A stretch of DNA of 64,000 nucleotides, taken from IMG/VR virus record IMGVR_UViG_3300028299_000002, positions 21,970 to 85,969 of that record; one strand, 5' to 3'. Numbering within the stretch: position 1 is the stretch's first letter; every line of letters starts with the position of its first letter. Source of the stretch: a virus. A program made the translations under genes and the position numbers. Below the pieces are notes generated by a model. The model searched no databases and was not told where the DNA came from. It was given only the letters and a program-made list of their open reading frames with translations. Below, piece by piece: positions 832 through 63,965 of the stretch.

Positions 832-860
832 AACTATCTGTATATCAGTAACTTATATTG

Positions 861-1482: not shown

Positions 1483-1488
1483 CTCCTA

Positions 1489-3087: not shown

Positions 3088-3109
3088 ACTATTACCTATT
3101 AGTTATTTA

Positions 3110-3562
3110 TTAATCGTCCGCTTCGGCCAATCGCCATCCTTTTATTATAAATGTAATCGTACCGGCGGTTATTACTCCCACGTCACCATCCGTATGCTCA
3201 ATATTCAGCGTTTCACCCCCACTGTCAGTTAATTTTAATGGTGGTTTAGGTTTGAGTTTTCCGACGATTACGGTTGCATCGATATATAGATCATTCAGCA
3301 ATGCCATCAATTCTTCGATTGTATGTACTTCAAATGCCGTTGTACCATCCGATTCGTTTAAACCAGTAAATACGATGTTTTTACCGGCTGGCATCGTAAA
3401 TCCCAGGCTACATTGAATCCCGATTTCCTCAATAAATATTTCCTCATTGGCTTCCGGTGCAATCAGGATATGTGGTGTAGCGCCCGTAGCCCAGCTTTCA
3501 GTCATTATAAATGCCGTTCCCCGTGGCATATTTACACGATAGAAATAACTTGTGTTTGGCAT
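3110..3562 (-). CDS. Hypothetical tail-associated protein
   Basis: 150-aa beta-rich ORF between baseplate and fibre genes. Confidence 0.6.
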   Translation of the reverse strand: MPNTSYFYRVNMPRGTAFIMTESWATGATPHILIAPEANEEIFIEEIGIQCSLGFTMPAGKNIVFTGLNESDGTTAFEVHTIEELMALLNDLYIDATVIVGKLKPKPPLKLTDSGGETLNIEHTDGDVGVITAGTITFIIKGWRLAEADD

Positions 3563-3577
3563 AATAAAGCTCCTTTT

Positions 3578-4279: not shown

Positions 4280-4285
4280 ATTATC

Positions 4286-5419
4286 TCACAATGATGGATG
4301 TAAATCCAGATTTATAGATATAGAACTATTATCCATGTGGACCAGGGTAATATTTTCCAACAATGGAATTGAGTTATAGGCCACTTCAATATCAGCAGAC
4401 GGTGTGAAATTCGGAACGTCCACATCATCAATTAATTCATCATTCAAAAATATTTGGAGTATATCATCGCTATCAACATCCGTTCCCAGTACCCATGTTC
4501 TAAAATCCAGATATTCCATGATTGAATCAGCAACGGAAATGAATACATCATTTAGAGTATTACCAGCCACCGGCCTCACAATTGCATATATATCAACTAT
4601 CGTCGTCGGTAAATCAAGCATAGTGATTTGTGGTAGAATTATCCAATTATCATTCAAATACTTTTTAACGTATGCTTTTTGCGCTGTCGATAGATACGTG
4701 CAACTTCTGGTAATCGTATAGATATTGATAATATTTTCACCAATTGCTTTTTCAACAAAAACCCGGTTTATATCCGAAATGGCCTCCTTACATGCTTCAC
4801 GAACAAAAGCCTCAGTAGATTTATTAAGAATGCTAATCTGGTTTTTGATCCGGTATCGATATTCTTCATCACTTTCAATGTCTGTACCGTAATAAGCCGG
4901 TAATGGATTGGAAACGCTATCAACCCCAACAATCGCAACAACCAATTTATTGACCGTATTTTCAGCCACATTGGTAGCGGCTCCGGTTGCCGTACAATTA
5001 GCAAGTACCGATGCTCCCAATGCCTCACTTCCAAATGTATAACCACCATCCGTATTGATTGTTATTTCGTTCTGTGTTTCAAATACATAGCCATGATCAC
5101 CGGTTATTTGTGTTTTTTCCGGTATAACTGTCGTATTTATACCCTGAAAGACCAATAATACCTGAGAAGCCGATGTACTTAACCGCGCAATTCCTCTATT
5201 TAACCCGTATATATCCAAATCATCATCAGACGATGTACTAAGAAACAGGTTTTTTATTTTCTGGCCGTAATCATACCACAATTCGGCCAATCTACGGGCA
5301 ATAGAAATAAACAATGCTCTGATCACACTGCCCGATCCAAAATAGGTTACTGTATCCTGGGCAACGGTAAAATCCTGTATTAACTCTTTTTCAATATCTT
5401 TTTCGGTTTTGATTGACAT
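4286..5419 (-). CDS. Baseplate J-like protein
   Basis: GSVIRALF, LDIYGLNRGIAR, GTDIESDEEYRYRI motifs. Confidence 0.9.
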   Translation of the reverse strand: MSIKTEKDIEKELIQDFTVAQDTVTYFGSGSVIRALFISIARRLAELWYDYGQKIKNLFLSTSSDDDLDIYGLNRGIARLSTSASQVLLVFQGINTTVIPEKTQITGDHGYVFETQNEITINTDGGYTFGSEALGASVLANCTATGAATNVAENTVNKLVVAIVGVDSVSNPLPAYYGTDIESDEEYRYRIKNQISILNKSTEAFVREACKEAISDINRVFVEKAIGENIINIYTITRSCTYLSTAQKAYVKKYLNDNWIILPQITMLDLPTTIVDIYAIVRPVAGNTLNDVFISVADSIMEYLDFRTWVLGTDVDSDDILQIFLNDELIDDVDVPNFTPSADIEVAYNSIPLLENITLVHMDNSSISINLDLHPSL

Positions 5420-5428
5420 CTTTTGCCC

Positions 5429-5680
5429 CTATACTTCAATTATTTCGTTTGAATTGACCGCCCGGATTTCCGAAGATACACTATAAGATTCATCGTCTTC
5501 GGTAATTTCAATATTTATGATCTCTGAAATACGCTGATCATTTGAATAGGCCGCCGATAATCTTGCTTTGATTACCGATGGAATAATCTCCGGCTCATAA
5601 CCTCCGGTCATAATTTCCTCTAATATAGGAAGTGTGTAATTTTGAATACTCTGTTTTAATGTATCGGTATATTCACTCAT
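5429..5680 (-). CDS. gp25/gpW-like baseplate wedge subunit (C-terminal part)
   Basis: DQRISEIINIEI motif; immediately upstream of J. Confidence 0.6.
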   Translation of the reverse strand: MSEYTDTLKQSIQNYTLPILEEIMTGGYEPEIIPSVIKARLSAAYSNDQRISEIINIEITEDDESYSVSSEIRAVNSNEIIEV

Positions 5681-6273
5681 GGTTTCCCAACGACTTTTAT
5701 ATCACCATTATAGCTTGCAACTAATTTATTCTCCAAATCTAATCCCATGGCCATCTCACCATCCTGACTACCCATTACAGACAAGTTGACATTTGAAATA
5801 TCATACATTCTGGATATCGGAATATTGATCACCAGTCCGCCAACTACCTCATCACTTTTCAAGTCATTGACTCTTAATATTTCCATCCAATCGGTATCAA
5901 AATATTCTGCAATGGTTTGTATATCCTCATATTCTTTAACCGTATAAGGTGCCGTTACCTGTAAATAATAATCCTCACCATTTCCAACCGCTTCAAGATA
6001 TTCCAACCATCGTTGACGTGTCAGCCGGGCAAACTTCGGAGCATTTTTAAGCATTTTAAGGTTTGCAAGTATGGTCAATGTCCCGTTTATTTCATCATCA
6101 TAATCCGTTACGGATGTAAACTGATCAATATCGACCTCTGTTTGTGTTGATTTCTTATATAAATAATCGTTATACAATTGTTCAAATAATCCGATGAGTT
6201 CATTTAATAATCCGAAATAGTCTTCCATATTAGGCCCTGAATATTGTTTTGAATTTTTCCCAAACCGGATCAA
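5677..6273 (-). CDS. LysM-containing baseplate protein
   Basis: YTVKEYEDIQTIAEYFDTDWMEILRVNDL...GLVINIP LysM-like segment. Confidence 0.7.
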   Translation of the reverse strand: MIRFGKNSKQYSGPNMEDYFGLLNELIGLFEQLYNDYLYKKSTQTEVDIDQFTSVTDYDDEINGTLTILANLKMLKNAPKFARLTRQRWLEYLEAVGNGEDYYLQVTAPYTVKEYEDIQTIAEYFDTDWMEILRVNDLKSDEVVGGLVINIPISRMYDISNVNLSVMGSQDGEMAMGLDLENKLVASYNGDIKVVGKP

Positions 6274-6961
6274 TCTGGGTTTTGAATCTTTCTTGAATCG
6301 CCATAGTGCCCATTATCTGATCTATAGCCAATGCCGCATTTCTTATATCCAATGTTTTCTGCAATATATCATCAACAACACCGCCCAACGGTTTTCCTAT
6401 GGCTTGCATCCGTAAATCATAACGTGGTAAATTGGACTGAGAACGTGCCGATTCACTGATATCAAAGCTTGTCGGATCAATCAACCAGACTTCGCTATTA
6501 ATGAAATCGTACATAGTCAATACGTATACTTCAGTATCAGATAATTTATACTTACCCAATAAGGCATTTTTAATTTTGTAATTGAATTCATTGGTGTAAG
6601 GAATCTTTTTAGTTTCGACTTTATGATATTGTTTAATGATCAGTTCTTTGAATAATTGTAACCTGGTAAGACCATCAAAATACATCAGCCCCCGGCGTTC
6701 TTTTCCGAATGTCCCGGACATCTTTATTTTGGGTAATCCCATCGGGAATTTATCTAAAAACCCACCTTCCATTGTCTGTGTAAATTTATTTCTTGATGGA
6801 TAGGTATAATTGATTTCGGTCGGTAAAGTATATAGCAATGTCGCATACAGAAATGTATTTTCACCCTTTTCATTATCATATTTTGAAAATTCAAAAAAGA
6901 TAATATTCGATAAGTCCCGGAGAACCGTTGCTATATTTCCCAATACCGAAGTATAACTCAT
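6230..6961 (-). CDS. Tail tube initiator / baseplate protein
   Basis: PTEINYTYPSR..TQTMEGGFLD..PKIKMSGTFG pattern; baseplate context. Confidence 0.6.
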   Translation of the reverse strand: MSYTSVLGNIATVLRDLSNIIFFEFSKYDNEKGENTFLYATLLYTLPTEINYTYPSRNKFTQTMEGGFLDKFPMGLPKIKMSGTFGKERRGLMYFDGLTRLQLFKELIIKQYHKVETKKIPYTNEFNYKIKNALLGKYKLSDTEVYVLTMYDFINSEVWLIDPTSFDISESARSQSNLPRYDLRMQAIGKPLGGVVDDILQKTLDIRNAALAIDQIMGTMAIQERFKTQIDPVWEKFKTIFRA

Positions 6962-45831: not shown

Positions 45832-48800
45832 TTATTCACCACCGAATACTGATTTCCGTAGTTCTTTCTGTTTGCGAATGACCTTAAACATCTTGTCAAA
45901 TTCTTTATTTATAGTTGTTCTTTCCTCTTTTTCCGGATATGGTATTGCGATAAAACCATCTATCATAGGCACTATAATTTCTCCATGAGCTCGATAAACA
46001 AGAAAATCACTCTGGTTTCCTTTACCCTTGATCTTATCCTCTATATAGGCCGCAAATGCTCTGGCTGCCATCTCATGTGGTTCGCTCCAATAATCACCAA
46101 CCCGCGCTTGGTCCAACTTTTTCGCTTCAATCGCATAGGATGTCGGGACAGATTTTGTCTTTACAGTTGATTTCTTTGCATCATTAACCATTTGTAAACG
46201 ACCATCATATATTTTCATTGCAGCTGCAAGTTCATCCATACATCCATACCTGTTTTGATTATCAAAACCAGATCGTCCTCTAACATCTTTATATATTTTG
46301 CTAATAGATTCAAGCGTATCAGAGGAAAAATGACCGGAACCATATCTGCTTTTACTATTAGTGGATGGATAGTATTTTAATTTCAGGTCTTTCCCTTTTA
46401 TCAGTAGTTTGGTCAATTTGTCAAATTCGGCAAGTTGTTCCTTTGACGCTGGTAATAATCCCCTCGTATTACTTCGCCAGGTATATGTTTTAGTCAGATC
46501 GGATTTAAGGTCTTTTCTAATTGAATCAATAGAACTTTTTATTTGTTCCCGCGCTTTATTGACAAATATATCGACCTTTTCCCTGTCTTCGACATATTTC
46601 ACAGGCTTTTTATAAATATTATCCATTAGACTTTTAAAAGTAGCAATCATTTCCGGTTTTAATTGGGAATGATAACCTTCACCATGACTAATAAAATTCC
46701 TATCGATGTTCGTTTTCCTAAATACCTTATCGCCATTGTCATTTATTATCTTTTCGGATGGTGACTTTGAATCTTTACGTGCAAAATAGTGATCCAGGGC
46801 GTGAAAATACTCGTGCCCTAATGCCCCCGCACCCTTCATTTTAGTCAAGTTGATTACACCATAATCCAGTTCATAATGAGCTTTTGCACCGGACAATCCT
46901 GCGCCCCTTGCCCCAAATGCAATTGCCAATTCACCACCAAGCATTAATTCACTCGGAGTTACACCTAATACATCCGCAAGGTCTAATAATCCATCATAGG
47001 CGTGATTCAATACCTGTTGACGTTCAGATTGATTATTCCAATTACCAAATTCAATGCCTCTTGGTTTGAACTTTTTCATAAACATTTCAGGAGTGGCATC
47101 TTGATTCCTTCTTACGGTTCCTCTTCTAATCGCTATTTCGGGAGCGGGTAATATTTCTTCCCCAAAAGTAGTTTTCGTTTCCAATAATTCTTCAGCATGT
47201 TTTACCATGTATAATTTTGCCTCTTCTTCAGTTGCAAATGTCCGATCTACAATTTTCAGAAACTTCCTGTCTGTTATCCTTTTTAATATTGAATATCTGT
47301 CCTTTTCATTTCGATCTTGGAATACCCTGAATTTTTCCGCAACTGCATATAATGGTATCGCCTTTTCAGCCTCTTTTTCTGAATTATATACGGAATCCCG
47401 CCTGGTTGCTAATCCATATTTATCACCCTTTTTGCCAATTACCCAACCACTCCCATCAACTCTTTTCAATACTATATATTTATCCCGCCACGGTGACAGA
47501 GTATTCTTTTTTGTCGTCCGTTTATTTCTGGAATAGCCAAATTGCGCCGTATCCTTTCTTGCCCCACCTATCTTTTTACCAAAATCAATGATATTGCCCT
47601 CTTTGCGTCGTGCCAATACTTTCTTTTTCGCCGCTCCGGTTACTTCTTTCCAATCTTCAGGCTTGCCGGTACTTTTAATCTTCTTCCACATGGTCCCGTC
47701 TTTATGAACCGACACATGTCCAACCGGGAACACTTTACCCCTGATTAGAAAATGAACAGATTTTAATAACTTACCGAAATCAAATTTCAGACTGAATTTT
47801 ACTTTACCCCCCGTAGTATCTATTTCAGTGTAATAATCCATTGCACTGTTGTTCAATAGTTCAAATCCACTGCCAGGATAATATTGCCCGTCGTTCTTTC
47901 CCGTTGTATATATCATTTTGTTCTTATTGTGATCGCAGTAGATAACACTGTCTTGATTATACTGCTTCCCAAGTTCAACGAGTTCTTTGTCCTTGACATT
48001 CGGGACCATAACCATATAACTGTCTTCAATTTCGCCATATTTACCGGTGACTTTTACAAATTTCAATCCCTTTTTAATAAGGTCTTCCCGTAGTTTCTTC
48101 TCACGGTTTTTTATATCCGGTTCCGTTAGTTTTTTATCATCGGGATCATTGGGATTAATCCCGGCGCTGATAAAGCCTACAATGCCATATTTTAATAACG
48201 TAGTGACTTCCTTTTTGGATAAATGTATTTCACCGCCTTTACCAGGCATATCTTGTTTACATTTCTCAGATAGCGATTCAGGTATTTTGGCATTGTGATT
48301 GTTTTTCGAATCCTCTTTAGGCAATTCCCATGACCGATTTATTGGATGCCCGGAACTTACCGGACTCTTTTTAGTCTTCTTATTCGTATATTGATTTACG
48401 GTTACTAATTTCCCGCTTGCACTCATTTTCGTATGTTGCCTGACTATCGATTTGAATAGTTCAAAGGATTTTCTTACCCATCTTTTCTTCCGTGTTTCCT
48501 TCTTCACATTCTGTTTTGTTAGATATTGTTGTACCGAGCCACCGCTATGAAAAAATGCGTCTGCCGTTTCCAGCTCTTTCACGATGGTCGATAAATAATT
48601 CTGGAGTAATTTCAACTCCTCTTTGGTTTTGCCAAGTTTCCCCTGCTGCTTCAGTATCGCCGGTGCCAGTTTGTAATTCTTATTGTCAATGATCCTTTCC
48701 GCCGCTTTGACCACATTACCCAATAATCCGGCTAATTGACGTTTAACCGCCTCAACCTTGTTATTATTGATCTGGCTTATACCGGTTATGACATTACTGG

Positions 48801-51414
48801 ATTCCGGTGATCCGAAGAATGATGTTTGGTTCTGTGCCTGTTTATATCGTGATACAATCCCATCCAGTTCATCTTTACTGATCTTCTTTTTCGAGTCGGT
48901 GATCTTTTTCAATACCTCAAACTGGAATTGTGATCTCAATCCGGCCAATCCGATTAATATACCGTGAGATTCCGCCAAATCACCATGTCTGATCAGATTG
49001 CTTATTTCCGGGATCAATGTGGTAAGTGATAATTTTCGTTGTACGGTTAATGGAGATACGCCCACACGTTCGGCAATTTCTTCATAACTCATATCAACGT
49101 CTTTGAGTTTTTTATAGGCATTGGCCGTTTCAATCGGATTCATCTCTTGACGGGCAAGATTTTCCGCAACCTGGATGGCATAAAGTTCTTTTTTATCCTT
49201 GACATCTAATATCTGTGCCGGGATAGTTGGTAATCCGGCCAGTTTAGATGCTCTCCAACGCCGTTCACCAAATATAATTTTATGTGTACCGTTTTCAATC
49301 GGTCGTACTCCAATCGGCTGCATCAATCCGATTTTACGGATGGAGTCACCCAATTCTTTTAATTTCTGCTGATCAAAATCAACCCGTGGCTGGTCCTCGT
49401 CCCGGACAATCATATTAACACTAATTTCCTGAACATTGGCCTTGCTTTTTGGGATCTCCCCTGATGATCCAAATAGGGATGTCTGACTTGGTTCTTCCGG
49501 CTTTTTGACTTTAGAGTTCTCATACGGATTAATAAGTACCATCTTTCCGGTTTCTGTAGTCCGGAAATGACCAGATACGTGGGATTTGAATAGGAGGCGG
49601 ATGGATTTATGCAATTTGACAATTTCTTTATCATTTACCCATGTTCTATTATCATTACCTTTTTCATCCTGATATTGAATACAATATATTGGTTTACCTT
49701 TATCCGTTTTATCCAATTGACATACTTTGCCGGTCAATGTTCTTGATTTATGACCGTATAATGCCCCAATATCCTTCTGATGGATAGTTACTTGATCATA
49801 TAATCGGATTTTTGTTTTTATTTGATTTTTGATCTCATTATTACTTTTTTTTGAATAGTAATTGTATATCTCATCATAATTCATATATTTTTTAGAACGT
49901 GATCCGATTTCTTGATTAATAAATTTGCAAAAATGATCTGGCAGTATATCGACTATATAATCATAAGAAACATTTTTATTATTCCTATTTGCTTCATATA
50001 ATTTGAACCAGAATGAACCGTCAGAAAAATATGGTGGTTCGCCCATTATAAAACGCCTTAAATCATCTCCCGATTTTCTTGATTTAATTTCTTTAATAAA
50101 TACCGGAAGGATAATCTTTTGATTCTTTTCAATATCTGATGTTAGCAATGGATATTTGATATTTGTCGCACCCGGTATTTTAGTTTTGGAGTTACTATAC
50201 TCTCTCACACTCGCAATCTTACCCAAGGCCGTTACCCGTGTATGTGCCTTTACATGGGATTTCTCTATTTTACCACCCTTTTCATCCTTCGCTGGTTCGA
50301 TCCGTTTGCCCTTATCGTTTTCCGGTGTCAGTTCGCTCCATACCTCAATGAAGTTCTGCTCATCTTCAGTAAATAGTTCATCATAATCATCCGGTGTATA
50401 CTTACCGCCCGGTTCATTCTTTTTATTTACCTTTGGCAATTCAAACGTATCGCCCTTACTTTTCGCTAAGGCAAATTTCCGGGACAGTTTACCTTCCAGG
50501 TATCCGTTTAACAGTTCCGGTGATATATAATTAGTTCTGCATACGTTTGGTGTATTACCCAGATGTTCAGAAACAAATTTCAATGCTTCCGCAACAACCT
50601 TTTTACGCTCGTTATCTTCACCCTTGTTTCCTGCATTAAGCAGCTGTTTTGTGAATTCAGCATTGGCCCTGAATGTCCGTAAATCCTTCGCCGTTAATCC
50701 GTATATACCAAGATATTTATTCACTCCATCGGAATTGACATTGCCCTTTGCGTCAATCTCAAATAACCGTTCCCCAGGCAATTGCTGTAATTGTCTTAAT
50801 GATTCTACCACAACCGGATCGGTGATCTCATGGGATTGCTCAACACTTTTTTTACCGATATAATTCAGAGTAACCGAATTCTCATTGAATATCACATGTT
50901 TTTTCAACAATGTGGTTATTCCATGAGTATCATTGCTTTCGGTATATTTTTCATTACCAACACGACCACCCGTTAAATCAATAATACGAACGGCCAAAGC
51001 AGTATATTTCTTAACCATATTGCTGCCGTTGATATCGTTATTTACGGCTTCCCGGAGTTCCGGGAGTCGATGGATCGCATTGGTGATCCGTTTATATTTT
51101 TCGCCTTGTTTTTGATCTACAAACTGCTGCTGATATCGCCGTTGTAACCTGCCCTTACTATCACGCCATTCATGGGTATATTTATCGTGCTTATCATAAG
51201 CATAGGCATGTTTAGCGTCTTCCGGGATGCCATGTTTTTTATATTCCGATGGATCAATAGCCTGGCGTTTAGCGGCCTTATTTTCCTTTGGTTTGGCTTT
51301 TCGCCCTGTCGGACGTTCACCATATTGAACATCGCCCTTTTTATCAATCCAATATTTGCCGCCTCTGGCTCCCGGTCGTTTGATTTTCGATGTCGATTTG
51401 AATATAAATTTCAT
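45832..51414 (-). CDS. Giant polyvalent protein: topoisomerase IB, ParB, DUF3293-like, LPD5/zincin/LPD1
   Basis: DSKGRLQRRY, GGRVGN, KDLRTF, LGNT..NY; QPIGVR..GERRWRA..ENLARQ; NQDSV; FGKKIGGARKD, HEYFHALDH, EMAARAF. Confidence 0.85.
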   Translation of the reverse strand: MKFIFKSTSKIKRPGARGGKYWIDKKGDVQYGERPTGRKAKPKENKAAKRQAIDPSEYKKHGIPEDAKHAYAYDKHDKYTHEWRDSKGRLQRRYQQQFVDQKQGEKYKRITNAIHRLPELREAVNNDINGSNMVKKYTALAVRIIDLTGGRVGNEKYTESNDTHGITTLLKKHVIFNENSVTLNYIGKKSVEQSHEITDPVVVESLRQLQQLPGERLFEIDAKGNVNSDGVNKYLGIYGLTAKDLRTFRANAEFTKQLLNAGNKGEDNERKKVVAEALKFVSEHLGNTPNVCRTNYISPELLNGYLEGKLSRKFALAKSKGDTFELPKVNKKNEPGGKYTPDDYDELFTEDEQNFIEVWSELTPENDKGKRIEPAKDEKGGKIEKSHVKAHTRVTALGKIASVREYSNSKTKIPGATNIKYPLLTSDIEKNQKIILPVFIKEIKSRKSGDDLRRFIMGEPPYFSDGSFWFKLYEANRNNKNVSYDYIVDILPDHFCKFINQEIGSRSKKYMNYDEIYNYYSKKSNNEIKNQIKTKIRLYDQVTIHQKDIGALYGHKSRTLTGKVCQLDKTDKGKPIYCIQYQDEKGNDNRTWVNDKEIVKLHKSIRLLFKSHVSGHFRTTETGKMVLINPYENSKVKKPEEPSQTSLFGSSGEIPKSKANVQEISVNMIVRDEDQPRVDFDQQKLKELGDSIRKIGLMQPIGVRPIENGTHKIIFGERRWRASKLAGLPTIPAQILDVKDKKELYAIQVAENLARQEMNPIETANAYKKLKDVDMSYEEIAERVGVSPLTVQRKLSLTTLIPEISNLIRHGDLAESHGILIGLAGLRSQFQFEVLKKITDSKKKISKDELDGIVSRYKQAQNQTSFFGSPESSNVITGISQINNNKVEAVKRQLAGLLGNVVKAAERIIDNKNYKLAPAILKQQGKLGKTKEELKLLQNYLSTIVKELETADAFFHSGGSVQQYLTKQNVKKETRKKRWVRKSFELFKSIVRQHTKMSASGKLVTVNQYTNKKTKKSPVSSGHPINRSWELPKEDSKNNHNAKIPESLSEKCKQDMPGKGGEIHLSKKEVTTLLKYGIVGFISAGINPNDPDDKKLTEPDIKNREKKLREDLIKKGLKFVKVTGKYGEIEDSYMVMVPNVKDKELVELGKQYNQDSVIYCDHNKNKMIYTTGKNDGQYYPGSGFELLNNSAMDYYTEIDTTGGKVKFSLKFDFGKLLKSVHFLIRGKVFPVGHVSVHKDGTMWKKIKSTGKPEDWKEVTGAAKKKVLARRKEGNIIDFGKKIGGARKDTAQFGYSRNKRTTKKNTLSPWRDKYIVLKRVDGSGWVIGKKGDKYGLATRRDSVYNSEKEAEKAIPLYAVAEKFRVFQDRNEKDRYSILKRITDRKFLKIVDRTFATEEEAKLYMVKHAEELLETKTTFGEEILPAPEIAIRRGTVRRNQDATPEMFMKKFKPRGIEFGNWNNQSERQQVLNHAYDGLLDLADVLGVTPSELMLGGELAIAFGARGAGLSGAKAHYELDYGVINLTKMKGAGALGHEYFHALDHYFARKDSKSPSEKIINDNGDKVFRKTNIDRNFISHGEGYHSQLKPEMIATFKSLMDNIYKKPVKYVEDREKVDIFVNKAREQIKSSIDSIRKDLKSDLTKTYTWRSNTRGLLPASKEQLAEFDKLTKLLIKGKDLKLKYYPSTNSKSRYGSGHFSSDTLESISKIYKDVRGRSGFDNQNRYGCMDELAAAMKIYDGRLQMVNDAKKSTVKTKSVPTSYAIEAKKLDQARVGDYWSEPHEMAARAFAAYIEDKIKGKGNQSDFLVYRAHGEIIVPMIDGFIAIPYPEKEERTTINKEFDKMFKVIRKQKELRKSVFGGE

Positions 51415-55742: not shown

Positions 55743-57599
55743 TTATTTATATTTGATAATTAGGTTTACGGCACCATTATTTGATTTCTTTAATTGCTTG
55801 GTTCGCTTGATGGATTTAAGTAAACTTTTGCCAATATTCTCCGGCTCCTCATCGGTTTCATCCCAATTCGGGTATTCGTTATATTCGGTTTCTTCTTCCT
55901 CGCCATTAGGATTTTCGCCGCCATTATTACCCTCTTGTTCCTGCTGTGCCTCTTGGGATTTTGTCATCAGTGCATTACTGACCAGTTGGATTACCTGTGG
56001 ATTACAGATTCCCGGAAGATCGTAAATATTGACATCCCCATACTTCAACTCAAATTTCTTTTTATCATTTTCAACCAGCAGATCATTGATACTGCATGTC
56101 GTCGCCAAACGGTCTTTATCAATTACCAGTTTCTTAGTCTGGTCCTCGACATCCAAACCACTCCAAACAATCCCGACTCCCTCAATACCGGTTATTTCCT
56201 CAAAAATGCCGCAATTATTGAGCAAGTCCGCAATGTTGTTCAGAAATCGCCGTAGCCCTGGGTCTTGACTGCGAACCATTGGGCCTTCTTCTTCCTCTTT
56301 ACCAAACAAACGTTGTTTGCCAATAGAGTTTTTATTGCTCGACATACTGACATCTTCAGGATCAAGCCCCTCAAATACACATAACCATGAAAACAGTGTT
56401 GACATCCAGAGAAAATCTTCCATTTCCTTACTTGTTTCATGGAATTTGATAAACTTGGGATCAACACCTTTGGGTAATCCAACAACCGGGTATTTCCATT
56501 TATCGTTACGGCCAGCCGATATTCCCCAGATCAATTTCCTGAATAATGTCATTTCCTGTTTTGAAAACCCGTCTTCCGTGGCACCGATAACCGCAATCAT
56601 ACCCTTTGGCATTGTATTGGCCGAACGCCTGGTCACGTTATAAGTCACTGAATCAACAATATAGCGCATAACACTGATAGCTCGTTCTGCGACACTGTAA
56701 CCCTTAAATTGATGCTCAATATCTGTTGTCCCGTAAAAATGACTGAATATCAATCTTTCCGGTGTAAACAGGGCAACCAGTTTCAATTGACGGTCAACCA
56801 TTCCGTAACGGTACTCATCCTGGTAATAGGTTTTATATCCTAACAGTTGTTCTTCAGATTGACGCTTTGTTACCGGCTGATAAAAATCCATGTAGTTTGA
56901 TGTCTGCTCCAACCCCTCAACTTTAGGAACAATGGGATAGATAATGCCAGAATCAACAATACACATAGCCGATGGCTTGCCACGATTATTATATTTTTTA
57001 TTGAAACTGGCATTCTCTCTTACAACCTCAATTGCCACTTTATCTAAATCGAATATGTCATTATAGCAATAGTAAAGAAATGAACTCATAGATGGCATTT
57101 CAACATTGGGAACATAAAAGAATCTTCGGCTTATCTGATTTTCAACCTGTTCACATGTTTTCTTTTGAGCTGCCGTCAAACTCTTTTGCCGGTCAAGTAG
57201 AGTAAGATTAAATCCCGGATTTTTACCATCACTGATCTTGGCAAATTCCATTATCTGATTATAGCGATATGACTTGATCAGCTGGGCAGGCATGGATCGC
57301 CCGGCGTTTCTTAATGTCCGATAATTCGTAGACTCTGGCAAGAAATCATAATTGTTGATTGAATTTCGGCTGGTTTCAACATCAAACATCAATGACATTA
57401 AATGTTGAATTGTGGATTGGTCATCCGCCATTTTTTCAGATACGTAAGAATTGTACGCTTTCAACATTTCCGGGTCTTTTAAAGCTTCGTCGATTTCGGA
57501 CAGAATACCTTCTTTCTGCGCCTTTGATAACCATAACTTAGATTGCTTTAAAAAACCTTCCTTTAAATCATTTTCGATTTCAGGTGATGGATCGGCCAT
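55743..57599 (-). CDS. Portal protein
   Basis: KGYSVAE..YN..R..PKGMI, FLWMSTLFSWLCVFEGLDPEDV, DPGLRRFL; acidic tail. Confidence 0.9.
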   Translation of the reverse strand: MADPSPEIENDLKEGFLKQSKLWLSKAQKEGILSEIDEALKDPEMLKAYNSYVSEKMADDQSTIQHLMSLMFDVETSRNSINNYDFLPESTNYRTLRNAGRSMPAQLIKSYRYNQIMEFAKISDGKNPGFNLTLLDRQKSLTAAQKKTCEQVENQISRRFFYVPNVEMPSMSSFLYYCYNDIFDLDKVAIEVVRENASFNKKYNNRGKPSAMCIVDSGIIYPIVPKVEGLEQTSNYMDFYQPVTKRQSEEQLLGYKTYYQDEYRYGMVDRQLKLVALFTPERLIFSHFYGTTDIEHQFKGYSVAERAISVMRYIVDSVTYNVTRRSANTMPKGMIAVIGATEDGFSKQEMTLFRKLIWGISAGRNDKWKYPVVGLPKGVDPKFIKFHETSKEMEDFLWMSTLFSWLCVFEGLDPEDVSMSSNKNSIGKQRLFGKEEEEGPMVRSQDPGLRRFLNNIADLLNNCGIFEEITGIEGVGIVWSGLDVEDQTKKLVIDKDRLATTCSINDLLVENDKKKFELKYGDVNIYDLPGICNPQVIQLVSNALMTKSQEAQQEQEGNNGGENPNGEEEETEYNEYPNWDETDEEPENIGKSLLKSIKRTKQLKKSNNGAVNLIIKYK

Positions 57600-57609
57600 A
57601 TATTTTCCT

Positions 57610-57813
57610 CTAACGGTTTGATTTTTTATGGATATGATGGATTGTAGAATCTATTCTGTCTGCAATGACACCATTTTTAATTGAAACACTAATGTTGACT
57701 TCGCAATAATCAGACGTTTCAATTTTTAACAGTTCGAAAAGTGAATTTAGGTGAGTATTTATCTGGGTTTGCTCGTGTGGAGAATAGTCTTTGTTTTTAT
57801 GACTGTTTACCAT
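57610..57813 (-). CDS. Hypothetical protein
   Basis: 67 aa directly upstream of the portal gene. Confidence 0.55.
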   Translation of the reverse strand: MVNSHKNKDYSPHEQTQINTHLNSLFELLKIETSDYCEVNISVSIKNGVIADRIDSTIHHIHKKSNR

Positions 57814-57855
57814 AAGTCAAATTATATTAATATATATATATTTAACAAGAAAAAT

Positions 57856-57886
57856 TTGACATTTAATTCAGGTGGTAACTGAATTA
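57856..57886. promoter_or_regulatory. Operator-like element shared with the head-operon promoter
   Basis: TTGACATTTAATTCAGGTGGTA vs TTGACATTATATTCAGGTGGTA at 31832-31853 (minus); includes palindrome TAATTCAG-N7-CTGAATTA. Confidence 0.6.
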
Positions 57887-57912
57887 TGGTGTATTATTTT
57901 AATAGTCTCTAA

Positions 57913-58155
57913 TTATTTGCGTATTTGGTGGGTAAGTTGTAGGTATTTGGTATAGTGATAACCCGGAGGTGATCGGGCGTTCCTAAATATGATTGTTAAT
58001 ATATCTATGGACCGCAATGGCACAATTAGAATATTATGCCATATTTCATTATTGATATTGTGGGGAATGTAATCATCGAAAAATCCTTTAGAAAAGGTAT
58101 CGCTACTATAATATAGACTGCTGCAATATAATACTATTACTGGAAATTGGTTCAT
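57913..58155 (-). CDS. Hypothetical protein
   Basis: ATGA overlap with the upstream ORF; composition unconvincing. Confidence 0.3.
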   Translation of the reverse strand: MNQFPVIVLYCSSLYYSSDTFSKGFFDDYIPHNINNEIWHNILIVPLRSIDILTIIFRNARSPPGYHYTKYLQLTHQIRK

Positions 58156-58505
58156 CGTAATTGTGCCCGGACAGGTTTAAATTTTAATCGTAGGTATTCA
58201 AGAACTTTCGACCAGCCGATTCTTTCATTAACAACTTTGGGATTTTCAATTAATGTAAATAGATGTTTTATTATTTTTATGATATCAGGATCGTCTATAA
58301 TCCCTTCGGTAAGACGATAACAATTAATCCAATTACTCGAATCACATTTCATCAATATAGCATATTCATCAAAATCAAGATTAACAGCAATAACACCACG
58401 CCTAAATCCTTTTAATTCTTTGGGATATTCTGGTGGCGGGGACTCAAGACGATGTATTTCCTTGAATTTCCGTGCTTTTGCATATTTATCTTTATAATAA
58501 TTCAT
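58152..58505 (-). CDS. Hypothetical protein
   Basis: 117-aa ORF. Confidence 0.6.
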   Translation of the reverse strand: MNYYKDKYAKARKFKEIHRLESPPPEYPKELKGFRRGVIAVNLDFDEYAILMKCDSSNWINCYRLTEGIIDDPDIIKIIKHLFTLIENPKVVNERIGWSKVLEYLRLKFKPVRAQLR

Positions 58506-58535
58506 TCAACCTTGCAAGGATAGCATATACACTGG

Positions 58536-59339
58536 TTATGTTGCTTCAATTCGTTTTTTTGCAATCTCAAAGTATTTCTCGTCTTTTTCTATACCAATAA
58601 ATTTTCGATTTAAATTTTTACAGGCAACACCTGTTGTCCCAGAACCAGCGGCAAAATCAAGTACCGTTTCGCCCTCGTTCGTGTAGGTCTTGATTAGGTA
58701 TTCCATTAGCGCTACTGGTTTTTGAGTTGGGTGGGTACTTTTATGACGAGGTACACTTTTGAAAAGTTTCACACTCGTTGGGTATCTACCATCTTTATAT
58801 TTATCCCAACTTCCTTGTATTATTTTTTTTGTATGATGCTCTGTATTATACTCTCTTGTTCCACCCTTTCCTGTACTATGGGCGTTTTCTCTTTTCTCCA
58901 TTATTGGATTGTAGGTAGTCCTTTCCTTGGCAAAAATTAACACATTTTCATGTTTCTTAGTAGGCATATATTTTGCTGAAAAAACTCCTGTGGGAATTGA
59001 TTTCTCCCAAATCCACTCATATCTAAACATCTTCATATTGCTTGAAATAAGCGTCGTGGTAAACGGCTGAGAAGCAGTTAATACAATGGCTCCGTTCGGC
59101 TTAATAACTCGCTTCAGATGCTCCCACATCGACTCTAAGGGTATAACCGAATCCCACTTACACGCAGTCGTACCGTAAGGTGGATCAGTAATTATAGCGT
59201 CTATACTTTGGTCTGGAATCATCGGCATAATATCAAGACAATCGCCAAGATGCAATCTAACCATTGTCTGGAGATAACGACCAGAGCTGTTCGCCGTTTC
59301 CGGTTTTGCTATCTCAATATTGGTTTGTACGTCATTCAT
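58536..59339 (-). CDS. DNA N6-adenine/N4-cytosine methyltransferase (beta class), cassette 4
   Basis: LHLGDCL, ITDPPYG, HPTQKPVALMEYLIKTYTNEGETVLDFAAGSGTT. Confidence 0.9.
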   Translation of the reverse strand: MNDVQTNIEIAKPETANSSGRYLQTMVRLHLGDCLDIMPMIPDQSIDAIITDPPYGTTACKWDSVIPLESMWEHLKRVIKPNGAIVLTASQPFTTTLISSNMKMFRYEWIWEKSIPTGVFSAKYMPTKKHENVLIFAKERTTYNPIMEKRENAHSTGKGGTREYNTEHHTKKIIQGSWDKYKDGRYPTSVKLFKSVPRHKSTHPTQKPVALMEYLIKTYTNEGETVLDFAAGSGTTGVACKNLNRKFIGIEKDEKYFEIAKKRIEAT

Positions 59340-59366
59340 GGTCGTATCTCAGACTGATCGTTCGGC
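59255..59366 (-). repeat. attC-like site D
   Basis: GCCGAAC-GATCA-GTCT-GAGATA-CGACC ... GGTCG-T-TATCTC-C-AGAC-AATG-GTTAGAT. Confidence 0.8.
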
Positions 59367-59714
59367 TTCATAAACGCGATCCAGTGTGTTTGATTCTGCT
59401 TGCCGCTTTTATGCCCAAACAGCGGACGGTGCGGAGTCAGTGGTAGGATTTCTTTGACCGGCACATCTTTATCGTTCCATTTGAAGATTAGTGTCCCATT
59501 TGGACGTAGCACGCGAAAACATTCAGCGAAGCCCATTGCCAGCATGTTGCGCCAGTCTCCCATTAGCACGCCATATTGGTTCGCCATCACCGCGCCGCTC
59601 AATGTAGTGCGGTGTGGAGGGTCAAATACCACGAGCGCAAACGTGTCGGACGGAAACGGTAGATTTGAGAAGTCTGCCTGCACATCTGGTTGTACCAGGT
59701 ATCCAACACAGGCG
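59336..59714 (-). pseudogene. SAM-dependent methyltransferase (DPPH type), internally deleted/frameshifted, cassette 3
   Basis: PPVLD (motif I start) in one frame, then LVQPDVQADFSNLPF..VFDPPH..CFRVLRPNGTLIFKW in another; most of motif I missing. Confidence 0.65.
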
Positions 59715-59970
59715 GAAATGAATCCGAACCCGCGTTTGCAGATAACGAGGCGAGCTGTTCACCTTGCTCTGCTGGCTCACCAAATAAAGCATGTTCAAGT
59801 TTTAATCTTATTCCGTAGTGTAATAGTTGTCGTCCAAGATTCTTCGTGACAATATTATTTTCATGTTCGTAAAAAACATCCCATTCAAGAATATAGTTTA
59901 TCTCTTTGTCTGTAAGTATTATGGGATGTTCGCCAGCGAGATTTTTCGATTTTGTCATAGTCCCATTCAT
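59599..59970 (-). CDS. ORF starting in the attC C loop and reading into cassette 3
   Basis: GAGGTG RBS inside the left arm; MNGTMTK..GEQLASLSANAGSDSFPPVLD. Confidence 0.5.
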   Translation of the reverse strand: MNGTMTKSKNLAGEHPIILTDKEINYILEWDVFYEHENNIVTKNLGRQLLHYGIRLKLEHALFGEPAEQGEQLASLSANAGSDSFPPVLDTWYNQMCRQTSQIYRFRPTRLRSWYLTLHTALH

Positions 59971-60004
59971 ATTTCACCTCGTATCTGATACGCCATCGTT
60001 CTGT
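59723..60004 (-). repeat. attC-like site C with an enlarged loop containing an ORF start
   Basis: ACAGAAC-GATG-GCGTAT-CAGATA-CGAGG ... CCTCG-T-TATCTG-C-AAACGC-GG-GTTCGGA. Confidence 0.7.
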
Positions 60005-60005
60005 A

Positions 60006-60215
60006 TCAGAGCGGATTTTGCAACAATTCCCATATTTTTTGAGTACTTATTTGTACCGCATTGAGTTGCGGTTTTTTATTATCAGTATCAGCGGTAAATT
60101 TTACAAGACAGGCAATTTTACGTTCACCCAACATTTTCCATAAATTAAAAATATCGTCATCGTTTTCGGGTACAAAAACAATATCATTCTCTTTTTCATT
60201 ACACGTTACTTTCAT
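60006..60215 (-). CDS. Hypothetical protein, cassette 2
   Basis: MKVTCNEKEN...; stop TGA followed directly by TACAGAAC. Confidence 0.65.
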   Translation of the reverse strand: MKVTCNEKENDIVFVPENDDDIFNLWKMLGERKIACLVKFTADTDNKKPQLNAVQISTQKIWELLQNPL

Positions 60216-60252
60216 CTTTTTCTCTCTTTCTGCTCTGACCAGCCCTTCGGGT

Positions 60253-60346
60253 ACAGAACCAGAGCGTGGACGCAACGCCTTATGCCGTTGCGTGGTTGTT
60301 AGTTTTTTCAAATATCATCGGCGTGTGTCACGCTTGGTCGTTAGGG
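60253..60346 (-). repeat. attC-like site B
   Basis: CCCTAAC-GACCA-AGCGT-GACAC-ACGCC ... GGCGT-T-GCGTC-C-ACGCT-CTG-GTTCTGT. Confidence 0.8.
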
Positions 60347-60347
60347 G

Positions 60348-61193
60348 CTATTCATCAAGACAAATAAACTTGTTGGCGGCATTTTCCCAATCATCCCCCG
60401 GTTCTGCATTTACCGCAAATTCATGCAAAAAATCACCGTTCCAATCCTGGTCATTTTCAAGACTTAATATATCCTCGGCGGTCATTTTGCTTGTAAACCC
60501 ACGACCAGACTTGTCTTTCCACATAAAGTTTTTCATCTCTAACTCCTCTAAATTATTCGCGTTAAAAAAAGCATAAGCAAAACCCATTGGAGTTTCACTT
60601 CGTAATTCTTTTGTAGCACTGCTTTTGCCACCATATTTCTGTGTTTTACTTCCGTATGAATATCTTACAGGCTTTACAACGTTTGTTGGTTTTGGCTTGT
60701 TAAATTTTCCGAACAGTGCGGTTTTTTTTGAATATTCGTCGCCGTACCAATATGGCTGGAAATACCAGGGATTTCCCAACTCGGGTATCAGTTTTTTTAT
60801 CCTGCCAACAGGATTTTCAATAGCATAAAATAGTGGCTGACATAAATCAATAATCCTTAGCGTTTGATATGTTAGTTCAATAAAATGCTCCAGACGGTTA
60901 AATTTTCCGAACAAAGTGTCTTGCGTTTTATCTTTATATTCCCAGTGTTTTGCCCCTGAAACAGCAAAATCTGTGCATGGTGGAGCCGCCAATATACCGT
61001 CAACTGTTTCGTAATTATCAAATATATTTTCATACATCCAGTCGGTATTTATATCCAAAATATTTTTACAAAAAATCGAATAATTATCATCATCTTTATT
61101 TTTCAAATCTATTCTAATCACGTTCCAACCCTTTTCGGCGTATGGTAATGACCAATTTCCGGTAAAGTCAAATAAGGATAAAAGCGTACTCAT
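60348..61193 (-). CDS. C5-cytosine methyltransferase-like protein with a C-terminal extra module, cassette 1
   Basis: LLSLFDFTG, ILAAPPCTDFAVSG, IENPVGR; tail MKNFMWKDKSGRG looks like a fused small ORF. Confidence 0.8.
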   Translation of the reverse strand: MSTLLSLFDFTGNWSLPYAEKGWNVIRIDLKNKDDDNYSIFCKNILDINTDWMYENIFDNYETVDGILAAPPCTDFAVSGAKHWEYKDKTQDTLFGKFNRLEHFIELTYQTLRIIDLCQPLFYAIENPVGRIKKLIPELGNPWYFQPYWYGDEYSKKTALFGKFNKPKPTNVVKPVRYSYGSKTQKYGGKSSATKELRSETPMGFAYAFFNANNLEELEMKNFMWKDKSGRGFTSKMTAEDILSLENDQDWNGDFLHEFAVNAEPGDDWENAANKFICLDE

Positions 61194-61200
61194 TTATAGC

Positions 61201-61310
61201 CCCTAACCCACACATGGATTTAACGCCGTGAGCTGTTCTATGTTTGGTGATTCATTCATTTGCTTTAGACCTTCTTTTATTTCGGCGTACATCATGCGTC
61301 ATCGTTATAG
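61201..61310 (-). repeat. attC-like site A
   Basis: CTATAAC-GATGA-CGCAT-GATGT-ACGCCG ... CGGCGT-T-AAATC-C-ATGTG-TGG-GTTAGGG. Confidence 0.8.
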
Positions 61311-61571
61311 CCCGCTGGCTCGCTATTCTACTAATTCAAAAGAATATGGTGATTTCACGGCAGTAGTATCATCATCTTGTTCACAATCAGCAGTCGGCTG
61401 TATTTCATTTATTCTTATCACCCTGTTGTCAATTTCAAGAAGTTTTGTCAGATTTATTAACATCATTCGCCTTCCTTTCGCTCGCCAGCGATTTTTGAGT
61501 TTTCAAACAATTCCGGTAAAATCATGTTTTTCATAGTTGATTTCCCTTATAAAGGTTTATTGGTTTTTCAT

Positions 61572-61613
61572 TCGGCGTGAGTGAGCCTTGTCGTTATAGC
61601 CCACTGGCTCGCT
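61572..61613 (-). repeat. Orphan left arm of an attC-like site; 22-bp near-duplicate of 61302-61323
   Basis: AGCGAGCCAG(T/C)GGGCTATAACGA followed by CAAGGCTCACTCACGCCG; no matching right arm found. Confidence 0.6.
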
Positions 61614-61639
61614 TGTTAATAGTATAGCCAGTTATTATT

Positions 61640-61789
61640 TCATAACCATTTATCATCTTGTTTTGATTTAAATACCTTCCGGTAATTCTTAATTGTGGAT
61701 GGCTTACAGTTCACGTATCGAAGAATCTCCATATCCGATTTACCCTCAAGGATCATTTTACGTAACTGTTGTTTGTCGTAATTTGTCAT
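61640..61789 (-). CDS. 49-aa HTH-like protein missing from the ORF track
   Basis: MTNYDKQQLRKMILEGKSDMEILRYVNCKPSTIKNYRKVFKSKQDDKWL*; first gene after promoter copy 3. Confidence 0.5.
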   Translation of the reverse strand: MTNYDKQQLRKMILEGKSDMEILRYVNCKPSTIKNYRKVFKSKQDDKWL

Positions 61790-61819
61790 ATTATTTAATC
61801 CTGTTTATTCCTTCTATCC

Positions 61820-61848
61820 CGTAATACATGCAATTTTAGAATTGTCCC
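61820..61848 (-). promoter_or_regulatory. Conserved early-type promoter motif, copy 3 (overlaps terminase stop)
   Basis: GGGACAATTCTAAAATTGCATGTATTACG. Confidence 0.65.
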
Positions 61849-63965
61849 TTTATATCTAATTCATCGCCAATATCCAATCCTGAATTATTGCCAACGTATG
61901 CGTTTTGACCGATCATGCTAATTGCTATTTTATCGTCAATGTATTCAAATTCCATCTCACATATTTGAACATCGTATTCCTCAAACTTATATCCGATCTC
62001 ACGCATAAAGTCACAGAATTCCTTATCGTCGTTATAAATCCGATTGTACTTTTGCTGAAATCTCTTAATCCCAATCCGATACATCTCCATCCGTTTTCTG
62101 TCTTCATCGACCTCATTATCACCCTCGTAAGTTCCATCGATATCCAATGCAGTCATATTTATCCCCGATTCTATGATCTGACAAACACAGTTCGCCAATG
62201 AATCATATATATCTTTACTTTCACCGTCGGGATGATCAATCTTATTATTGTTTATCATCAATAGCATCATCATTTCCCTGATCAGTGTGGCATCATCCAG
62301 GTATTCAATTGCATTATTCCATACAAGGTGACGGACTATTTTACCCATCCGAACCTGAACCGGATTAGAGAAAAACATAGCCTCTGAACCACGTATTCCA
62401 ATATCCAACATTTTTTGACGAAGACTCTCTGATTGATAATGATCTGACCGTATTCCCCGGCTCCCCCTATATTCTGATCCCAATAGTTTTACCATGTTGT
62501 TTTCGACATTCACGTAATCAACCGGGAATTCTTTGCTTGGCTTATATTTGATAATAATATCAATCACCGGTTTGCAATTGAAGGCTATTTTTTCAACAAC
62601 CTTATTTCCGTCACTCTTATAATGTTCCAATTCAAGAGTAACAACCTCATGGCTCAATACATCCGGATAACCGCCAACTATGATAAAACTGTCACCGGTT
62701 TTACTTGGATCATACCCCCAATACCGGCGGCGATCATCTCTCAGTGTCTTAATTATTTCAATGGCCGTGAATCTACGAATACCGTCCTCACCACGGACAT
62801 TGACCAGGCGTTCGGTTAATGCACTTTTATATTGTACCGGATTTACCAATTTCGGATTTGCACACTCATGTATTTTATCCATATAGGGCATGAAGAATCC
62901 AAACCTGTTCGGCGGTACTTCGGCTTTCCATCGCCTGTTGACATCAATGGTATCAGCTCCGGGTTTATTTAATGCCTTTTGGTAATCTGCTTCACTCAGT
63001 TTCGGATTGAATACATGAGCATAAAACCACGCAACTAAAATATGGTCATTGATCTCTATTGTATTTGCCATTGCCTTTTTAGCATGATTTAGATACTGCT
63101 CAACCAATAGATCATTTACTTCCTGTTCAGGGTATGCGAACATCATGCCCAACTTAAATCCAACAATAAATCGTGTGTTCTGATTACCGTTTGCAGTTTC
63201 ATATTGGTGCTTTGCCGTAGCATATTTAATCGGTGTGTTCGCCCGGCTCGGTTCATCGGTGATCCTCATCCAGATTGCATATCCTTCAACACTCTTGGCC
63301 GTTGTGTCCATTACATAAATACTGATCCCGCCGTATATCCGATTTCTGTGTGGAATATTAATACTTTCAGTCTTGACATCTTTCTGTCCATATTCCCTGA
63401 TCTTTAATCCAATATTTTGAGAATACCAGTTATGACCGGTTGCCGGATCAATGGTATTAATCATAACCCTTGTTAAACGACCAAAAAATACACGCCTAGC
63501 CTGTTGTAAATTGACTTGGGAATAAATAAGCACGTCGAAATCCTCATCCTTCTGAAGATCAAAATGTTCGTGTGGGTCTTCGAGACAGCACCATAGATAA
63601 AAAGCATAATTACAGACAATCAACATAACGGTATTCTTACCACCACCCTGCCCGATCCTCAGTATTATTTCCTCAACTCCAAAAAACCAGCCGTCCTCAG
63701 TCGGTATTTCTGGAAATACACCCTTAATAACTTTCCATTGTTCAGGGGATGGCTCAACCGACCGCATATATTTCCGGACAAATATTTCAACCGTAACCGG
63801 CATGATCTGCCAGAATGGTTTGTCTATATTTTCTTCCTCTGTTTTTCTTATATAATCATTCCGTTCAGCTATAGATACAAATCGACCGAAATCCGTATTA
63901 TTAATATCATCGTTTAGCGTATATATGCTTTTTCTTAAATCCGGTTCAATAAAATGTTTATTCAT
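61836..63965 (-). CDS. terL: Terminase large subunit
   Basis: Walker A LRIGQGGGKN, ITDEP, nuclease WGYDPSKTGDS and DHP..SKDIYDSLA. Confidence 0.9.
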   Translation of the reverse strand: MNKHFIEPDLRKSIYTLNDDINNTDFGRFVSIAERNDYIRKTEEENIDKPFWQIMPVTVEIFVRKYMRSVEPSPEQWKVIKGVFPEIPTEDGWFFGVEEIILRIGQGGGKNTVMLIVCNYAFYLWCCLEDPHEHFDLQKDEDFDVLIYSQVNLQQARRVFFGRLTRVMINTIDPATGHNWYSQNIGLKIREYGQKDVKTESINIPHRNRIYGGISIYVMDTTAKSVEGYAIWMRITDEPSRANTPIKYATAKHQYETANGNQNTRFIVGFKLGMMFAYPEQEVNDLLVEQYLNHAKKAMANTIEINDHILVAWFYAHVFNPKLSEADYQKALNKPGADTIDVNRRWKAEVPPNRFGFFMPYMDKIHECANPKLVNPVQYKSALTERLVNVRGEDGIRRFTAIEIIKTLRDDRRRYWGYDPSKTGDSFIIVGGYPDVLSHEVVTLELEHYKSDGNKVVEKIAFNCKPVIDIIIKYKPSKEFPVDYVNVENNMVKLLGSEYRGSRGIRSDHYQSESLRQKMLDIGIRGSEAMFFSNPVQVRMGKIVRHLVWNNAIEYLDDATLIREMMMLLMINNNKIDHPDGESKDIYDSLANCVCQIIESGINMTALDIDGTYEGDNEVDEDRKRMEMYRIGIKRFQQKYNRIYNDDKEFCDFMREIGYKFEEYDVQICEMEFEYIDDKIAISMIGQNAYVGNNSGLDIGDELDIKGQF

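Follow-up and report, generated by a model that had tools for sequence, protein, structure and literature searches.

The 64-kb window analysed here comprises bases 21970–85969 of a 90,580-bp virus record of the IMG/VR database (IMGVR_UViG_3300028299_000002); positions given below are those of the window unless they are marked as contig positions. The minus strand of the window carries, within 3.1 kb, four full hairpin sites and a half-site of the kind known as attC, the recombination site of integron gene cassettes, and about 13 more sites are present in another array of the same record. Judged from sequence comparison, the region is a CALIN (an attC cluster without an integrase) in a lake-water phage, and its cassettes would, on the likeliest reading, be exchanged by an integron integrase (IntI) of the host. 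Comparisons of this genome with itself and with DNA of co-occurring phages show that cassettes and hairpins have been reassorted, with breakpoints precisely at the AAC and GTT ends of the sites.

Elements of this general kind have been published: Qi et al. (2023, PMC9892861) described CALINs in 17 phages, with methyltransferases among their cargo, and five of six phage attC sites that they tested were recombined by the integrase IntI1. The first-pass annotation of the window had read the region as an integron-like cassette array inside a phage; the attC homology and the logic of the cassettes bear this reading out, although the kind is less novel than first assumed and no phage tyrosine recombinase was found in the record. 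As in the published CALINs, the attC arrays lie between co-oriented genes of virulent or uncharacterised phages, there is no intI, and DNA methyltransferases are frequent cargo. In contrast to the published examples, which have two to four short predicted sites each, the window phage has at least 17 sites in two arrays, and these sites are longer, conserved in sequence (motif ACAGCTC, two bulges) and tied to a specific bacterial attC family. Reversed polarity, loop start codons and a cassette pool common to several phages are not raised in the portion of that report seen here. What appears to be new is a short phage-associated attC sub-family of ca. 103 nt with reversed cassette polarity and loop-encoded starts, and the value added lies in this phage-type variant and in having traced the sites to a defined family of bacterial attC. 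The phage CALIN is, besides, unusually large.

Structure and kinship of the sites

All four hairpins that the first-pass annotation had listed were located, each of them bordered by AAC and GTT on the minus strand: site A at 61205–61306 (102 nt), site B at 60257–60342 (86 nt, a short-loop variant), site C at 59727–60000 (274 nt) and site D at 59259–59362 (104 nt). The common architecture claimed for them, with an unpaired T and an unpaired C, is seen in all four on the coding (minus) strand. A site reads X′AAC, a partly unpaired spacer (5 nt/4 nt), a 4-bp stem, a bulged base, a 5–6-bp stem, a bulged T, a 6–7-bp stem, the loop, the mirror arm and GTT-X. On the coding strand the two bulges invariably belong to the 3′ arm; the outer one, 8 nt from GTT, is C in A–D and C, A or G in other copies. 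The motif ACAGCTC at the border between the loop and the 3′ arm is common to three of the four sites (direct repeats D1–D3) and absent from B. As the motif is translated in one frame in D (NSS) and in another in C (EQL), it must be conserved as nucleic acid. Three classical features of attC are thus present, namely inverse AAC/GTT cores, a covarying R–spacer–L fold and extrahelical bases on one strand.

The folding energies of single sequences are unexceptional (coding-strand z-scores between −0.75 and −2.84, the lowest value belonging to B) and were not used as evidence, so that support for the hairpins comes from covariation and comparison rather than from stability. An energy-only hairpin scan with relaxed thresholds yielded many false positives; sites were therefore curated by hand and then confirmed by a covariance model.

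A pattern scan of 185,579 species genomes retrieved 65 loci, about half of which are clear homologues of 124–126 nt. The metagenome-assembled genomes (MAGs) that carry the homologues are labelled Neomarinimicrobiota, Bacteroidota, Calditrichia, KSB1, Cloacimonadota or unclassified. The attC family represented by these homologues is abundant among uncultured bacteria, in whose chromosomal integrons it resides. Integron integrases scoring above the TIGR02249 cut-off were found in two of the five MAGs tested (at least six in G001 and one in G002). In contig C22 of G001, an intI gene (692–1660, minus strand; TIGR02249 413 bits against a cut-off of 265) reads away from an array whose genes lie on the plus strand and whose six attC sites, 124–126 nt in length, were found by structure alone. 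This contig is a canonical integron.

We used 18 bacterial attC sites, chosen to avoid circularity in that none of them matches the phage-derived search pattern, to build a covariance model, R1; among these 18 sites compensatory changes occur in 14 of 21 pairs. When the phage DNA was checked with this attC model, as the first-pass annotation had proposed, R1 matched D at E = 4e-12 (64.1 bits), A at 4e-8 (46.6 bits) and B at 2.7e-6 (38.6 bits). At E ≤ 1e-3 there were 22 matches in phage loci (21 of them distinct), all on the coding strand; 19 of these places, representing 18 distinct sites, are additional to D, A and B, and no match was retrieved outside the array in the 64-kb window. R1 misses site C because of a 175-nt insert in its loop. 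The arms of C match a 106-nt site at contig 4364–4469, and this short copy is recognised by R1 at 47.5 bits. Taken together, the homology to bacterial attC sites and the R1 matches place the phage sites in a real attC family.

The insertion in the loop of site C measures ca. 175 nt (59769–59943), is absent from the twin at contig 4364–4469 and lengthens the loop open reading frame (ORF) to 123 aa. The form of site C without the insert is present in four lake runs, with the joint at 59768–59950.

The expectation that the stems would covary in homologous sites was borne out with the 21 distinct phage sites. Compensatory cells numbered 102, compared to 37.7 in shuffles, and 86.9% of cells were paired in the named structure, compared to 64% in shuffles. 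The covariation score was 0.553, whereas shuffles gave 0.156 and slid partners no more than 0.16, and changes on both sides were present in 15 of the 21 pairs, with G-U nearly absent among covarying pairs. AAC and GTT are invariant in all 21 sites, and the RYYYAAC/GTTRRRY consensus beyond the triplet is kept only in part.

The phage and chromosomal-integron sites share motifs, the 21-pair structure, the two extrahelical bases, the spacer and the AAC/GTT borders with cognate complementarity, and the bacterial and phage copies are mutually detectable by one covariance model. They differ in length, the bacterial sites measuring 123–128 nt (ca. 125) and the phage sites mostly 100–106 nt (ca. 103), and in context: bacterial sites follow top-strand genes, with intI adjoining in the case examined, whereas the phage copies are without intI. 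One locus in the bacterial MAG G001 (L097:4488–4601) holds a site of 104 nt whose R′ box is of the GTTC type and which precedes a 68-aa bottom-strand ORF, in a contig otherwise equipped with sites of ca. 125 nt. This phage-type arrangement may have been left by an exchange of cassettes between the phage and bacterial pools.

When compared by eye with a mobile-integron site, attCaadA7, the phage sites have in common with it the R box AAC/GTT, the unpaired spacer, a terminal loop that varies, and the L-box stem with its bottom-strand extrahelical base at 8 nt from GTT. Unlike attCaadA7, they have a second bulged T ca. 15 nt from GTT, GTTC in half of their R′ boxes, conserved loop sequences and inverted gene polarity.

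Cassettes and their polarity

The four cassettes of the window are all on the minus strand. Cassette 1 (60340–61207) contains a C5-cytosine DNA methyltransferase-like ORF at 60348–61193 (PF00145, 27.3 bits; phrog_757, E = 1.5e-48). Cassette 2 (59998–60259) holds a 70-aa ORF at 60006–60218 with no family match; its segment 59981–60262 is duplicated, with 99% identity, at contig 1133–1414. Cassette 3 (59360–59729) is the remnant of a class-I S-adenosylmethionine-dependent methyltransferase that has lost its motif-I region and is shifted in frame. Cassette 4 (58535–59261) encodes an N6/N4 DNA methyltransferase (PF01555, 130.6 bits) in an ORF that spans 58536–59264 or starts at the loop ATG at 59339. 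Together with a gene of the 3′-phosphoadenosine-5′-phosphosulfate (PAPS) reductase family and further small ORFs found in related arrays, this cargo of several DNA methyltransferases fits, as far as predicted functions go, a shuffled anti-restriction repertoire.

Each cassette had been claimed to be bracketed by complementary ends, the footprint of a crossover at G|TT or AA|C, and the claim holds for all four: the ends of the C5-methyltransferase cassette pair over 12 bp, those of cassette 2 with its small ORF over 8 bp (or ca. 17 bp, if a 13-nt bulge is allowed) and those of the methyltransferase remnant over 6 bp, and there is a weaker pair for cassette 4, in which seven of nine positions match and only four are contiguous. 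Among 28 cassettes of six arrays, cognate ends have on average 8.0 contiguous bp, compared to 3.8 for non-cognate ends, and at least 7 contiguous bp are found in 24 of the 28 cognate pairs but in 4.9% of the non-cognate ones.

One of the phages listed by Qi et al., the complete 34.6-kb MW202573, also has an array with cognate complementary ends (L073, ca. 2070–3730), in which the genes lie on the strand with the extrahelical base. R1 matches one of its sites weakly (23 bits). The cassette methyltransferase of MW202573 is 54% identical to cassette 3, and both proteins end in FMKPN, the codons of which supply the AAC of the next site (R″ box).

The strand that reads AAC...ACAGCTC...GGTT and has the bulges on its 3′ arm is opposite to the genes in the bacterial integron, whereas in the phage arrays it is the coding strand. 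This bulge-bearing strand is the canonical bottom strand, for it matches the bottom strands of attCaadA7 and TJE1_attC1, with the extra base 8 nt from GTT, as given in Table S3 of Qi et al. The phage arrays therefore do not have the canonical cassette layout, a top-strand ORF with attC at its 3′ end; their cassette genes lie on the bottom strand, and each attC precedes its own gene. Among bacterial cassettes of the attC family, 18 have the gene on the top strand, one on the bottom strand and one is ambiguous; the corresponding numbers for phage cassettes are 0 top and 17 bottom, with 11 too short to call (Fisher p = 4e-9). The same division is seen in metagenomes, where ORFs flanking sites of at most 110 nt are on the bottom strand in 48 cases and on the top strand in two, and ORFs flanking sites of 123–128 nt are on the top strand in 56 cases and on the bottom strand in six.

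The polarity is accompanied by start codons in the loops. A loop ATG with a frame open to or through GTT is present in 29 of 30 distinct short (phage-type) sites, compared to 25 of 75 long (bacterial-type) ones. Loop ORFs of the window phage take one of two forms: they share the frame of the entire cassette, or they terminate a few bases at most from the cassette's own start. The loop ORF of site A is 18 aa long, with its stop in GGTTAG, 10 nt before the methyltransferase ATG, and the loop ATG of site D opens into the frame of cassette 4. For this cassette, translation may itself begin at the conserved ATGGTT of the 3′ border, as suggested by a by-eye comparison with the P12002L methyltransferase.

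Mosaicism and the proposed source of the recombinase

The ca. 13 further sites of the record, all on the coding strand, are located at contig 1–6560 and 88889–89825. Since the record begins and ends within an N4/N6 methyltransferase gene, these sites probably form one array of ca. 8.3 kb on a nearly complete circle. Pattern scans revealed more arrays in the IMG/VR contigs L009 and L044 and in many metagenome contigs. The array of contig L158 comes after genes for ERF, a DnaC-like loader, a methyltransferase and RusA, and so belongs to a different phage backbone. In L044 (3417–3900), a replication-protein-like ORF with tandem GGTGGAAACGCC-type iterons directly follows the last site, and the array would abut a putative origin region.

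In an all-against-all blastn comparison of the arrays, homology blocks begin at AAC and end at GGTT. A copy of site D in L009 is 88% identical and has different flanks on both sides; a C5-methyltransferase cassette shared with L044 is followed by different hairpins. Lake-water metagenomes also contain DNA of the phage region, and contigs from four further lake runs were aligned with positions 57500–62500. In agreement with the prediction that breakpoints across related DNA would fall at GTT/AAC, these contigs end or branch exactly at 59259, 59726, 60262, 61205 and 61307. In them, the PAPS-reductase cassette of L009 follows D-type and C-type hairpins, hairpin A is followed by the methyltransferase found at the start of the record, and several different cassettes precede hairpin A. 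The pattern of branching fits cassette reassortment, as read from the assembled contigs.

The remark that no integrase is encoded nearby holds for the whole 90.6-kb record, in which neither PF00589 nor TIGR02249 nor tblastn with a cognate IntI as the query gave a match. The same searches did not find in the record the phage tyrosine recombinase that had been postulated outside the window, and a host IntI acting in trans is the candidate that remains. Nor does the record have the intI gene, attI site and promoter by the array that would make a complete integron. A short ORF at 235–402 (plus strand), adjoining a plus-strand helix-turn-helix (HTH) ORF, encodes a motif of only ca. 25 aa that resembles the C-terminal catalytic-tyrosine box of tyrosine recombinases (HKDLKTTIHYNHT). 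It was rejected as the missing integrase, given stops in all upstream frames and no match to either PF00589 or TIGR02249, and may be the decayed integrase of a former lysogeny module.

In the mechanism we propose, the host would supply an integron integrase in trans during infection, and IntI would act on the folded bottom strands of two attC sites (attC × attC). With the crossover at AA|C of the bottom strand, a phage cassette would consist of C + attC + GTT-X + gene + X′-AA, so that a hairpin and the gene that follows it would travel together, in keeping with the arrangement of starts in the loops. Arrays may have been founded by IntI-mediated insertion into secondary genomic 5′-GWT-3′ sites, a kind of site at which IntI is able to insert cassettes (10.1101/2022.09.11.507474).

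Several observations weigh against exchange by a host integrase. Contig branch points also arise from any repeat in an assembly, no recombination was seen directly, and the Logan contigs used cannot reveal excised circles. Half of the R′ boxes read GTTC and thus depart from the GTTRRRY consensus. No tyrosine recombinase was found in the record, in the complete phage MW202573 or in the phage-type loci. Finally, the cassettes to either side of one and the same hairpin type vary, for which a single crossover point is insufficient; either homogenised attC sites, as in chromosomal integrons, or additional homologous exchange would be needed.

Such exchange is central to one alternative, which we consider unlikely: that the sites are relics captured from host integrons, no longer recombined site-specifically and kept for expression, and that the mosaicism stems from homologous recombination between hairpins in co-infection. 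The loop start codons of nearly all phage-type sites would suit a role in expression, the hairpin copies are 88–100% identical, which is enough for homologous recombination, and ERF and RusA are encoded beside the array of L158. However, homologous exchange inside hairpins neither creates nor maintains the complementarity of cognate cassette ends, the breakpoints are at the AAC/GTT edges and not inside the hairpins, stems and extrahelical bases are maintained by compensatory change, and neither promoter nor terminator signals are enriched. Some of the mosaicism may nevertheless be due to homologous recombination between conserved hairpins.

A similar mode of shuffling, by homologous recombination, has been proposed for the promoter-early stem-loops (PeSL) of T4-type phages, mobile regulatory cassettes reportedly described by Arbiol et al. 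in 2010 as direct repeats with an early promoter and stem-loops that flank small accessory genes in hyperplastic regions. The likeness to the PeSL lies in repeated stem-loops that flank small accessory genes and are proposed to shuffle them, and the difference in the AAC/GTT borders, inverted cognate ends, attC homology and lack of promoter enrichment of the phage sites. Eight sigma-70-like matches were obtained, compared to 11.6 expected, and none was at the sites, in a scan with the sigma-70 consensus, which may not be that of the host.

It is also conceivable, though we regard it as improbable, that the sites are attC-derived but that their strands are exchanged by an enzyme of the phage, either the type IB topoisomerase domain of an 1860-aa protein or a protein that escaped recognition. 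This polyvalent protein (45832–51414, minus strand) combines a type IB topoisomerase core with ParB_N and an HTH, an S-AdoMet-lyase-like domain and LPD1, and its catalytic core matches PF01028 (Topoisom_I) at 110.5 bits. Type IB topoisomerases share the chemistry of tyrosine recombinases, and the vaccinia enzyme is able to transfer strands and resolve junctions; the absence of an integrase from the phage record would also be accounted for. On the other hand, neither a topoisomerase nor an integrase was found in other array-bearing phage DNA, including MW202573 and L158, the geometry of the sites is that of IntI substrates, and the vaccinia-type CCCTT motif is not conserved in them.

Very improbable is a purely RNA-level role of the hairpins, as terminators, RNase III sites or translational operators without any part in DNA rearrangement: they are transcribed in sense orientation and overlap translation starts, but a sense-RNA function cannot be the conserved one, because the bacterial homologues are on the opposite strand relative to their genes, none of A–D scored as a terminator on the coding strand, there is almost no G-U among covarying pairs, and the cognate end complementarity and precise mosaic borders would go unexplained. 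Readings of the IS200/IS605, MITE (miniature inverted-repeat transposable element) or Xer type were dropped in view of the single hairpin per junction, the inverted ends that vary by cassette and the attC homology.

A broader proposal can be put forward tentatively, and we hold it a little short of evenly balanced. The phages would carry a phage-adapted attC lineage derived from the ca. 125-nt chromosomal-integron family of uncultured freshwater or marine bacteria, with flipped polarity and a start codon in the loop, and unrelated phage backbones would share a cassette pool via the host integrase. Equally tentative are the examples of such sharing, the 90-kb phage, the ERF/RusA lambdoid-like contig and the contig with the replication-protein-like gene and iterons. 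The content of the pool, which on the same footing could comprise DNA methyltransferases, PAPS-reductase-family genes and small ORFs, might amount to a "counter-defence integron" of phages that have no integrase themselves. Given the flipped polarity, the phage and host pools would stay functionally separate even with the same enzyme, since the genes of either pool would be antisense within the array of the other.

Integrons are known as bacterial devices, and their cassettes have recently been shown to store anti-phage defences. A phage cassette pool served by the same integrase, and stocked on the phage side with DNA methyltransferases, would, if real, make a single recombination system serve both parties to the arms race and provide a concrete mechanism for the fast turnover of accessory genes in hypervariable phage regions. 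Reversed polarity and loop-encoded starts are testable design rules that could improve the detection of cassettes in viromes, since current tools expect bacterial polarity and integrases nearby. A match to a bacterial attC family also offers a new handle for phage host prediction.

Array edges and surroundings

At its upstream edge the array ends in a half-site (61573–61613, minus strand), which consists of an R″-type box ending in TATAAC and a 5′ arm, with no recognisable 3′ arm, and which R1 does not match. The segment between the half-site and site A (61325–61572, minus strand) has only tiny ORFs of 23 and 47 aa with no family match. A 23-nt direct repeat (D8, 96% identical), present at 61302–61324 before site A and at 61591–61613 in the half-site, brackets these ca. 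270 bp; it could be the product of an aborted or partial insertion or a duplicated array border.

The opposite edge is formed by a closing element of 34 nt (58505–58538, minus strand) that runs from TAAC to GTTGAA and contains the palindrome CCTTGCAAGG but no long arms. The other array of the record is closed by an element with 97% identity to it (contig 88889–88922), and a search of IMG/VR retrieved no further copy. The position of these elements corresponds to the end occupied by attI in a bacterial integron.

Every gene around the array is on the minus strand, in the order 709-aa ORF (61836–63965, upstream of the array), 49-aa HTH ORF, array, 117-aa ORF and portal gene (55743–57599; phrog_11117). 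The 709-aa ORF has no relatives in IMG/VR and belongs to no Pfam or PHROG family. We do not claim it as the large terminase, which it resembles in position and a P-loop-like motif only. A megablast search with 8.3 kb against 50,697 phage records gave short methyltransferase matches only and no related phage, and an Rfam search of 58000–62000 found nothing relevant (one RyhB match, E = 0.9).

The ends of the record (contig 1–100 and 89840–90580) lie inside the N4/N6 methyltransferase gene mentioned above, one end holding the N-terminal part and the other an open C-terminal part. The 90.6-kb record may thus represent an almost closed circle and not 58% of a genome. Outside the window, at contig 4443–5710 (L003/L004), an HNH/AP2-like endonuclease ORF (contig 5027–5545) stands between a duplicated short N-terminal methyltransferase fragment and the full gene, an arrangement suggestive of a homing-endonuclease footprint. 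Another HNH-like ORF (contig 1648–2025) is situated inside the reading frame of a 522-aa C5-methyltransferase.

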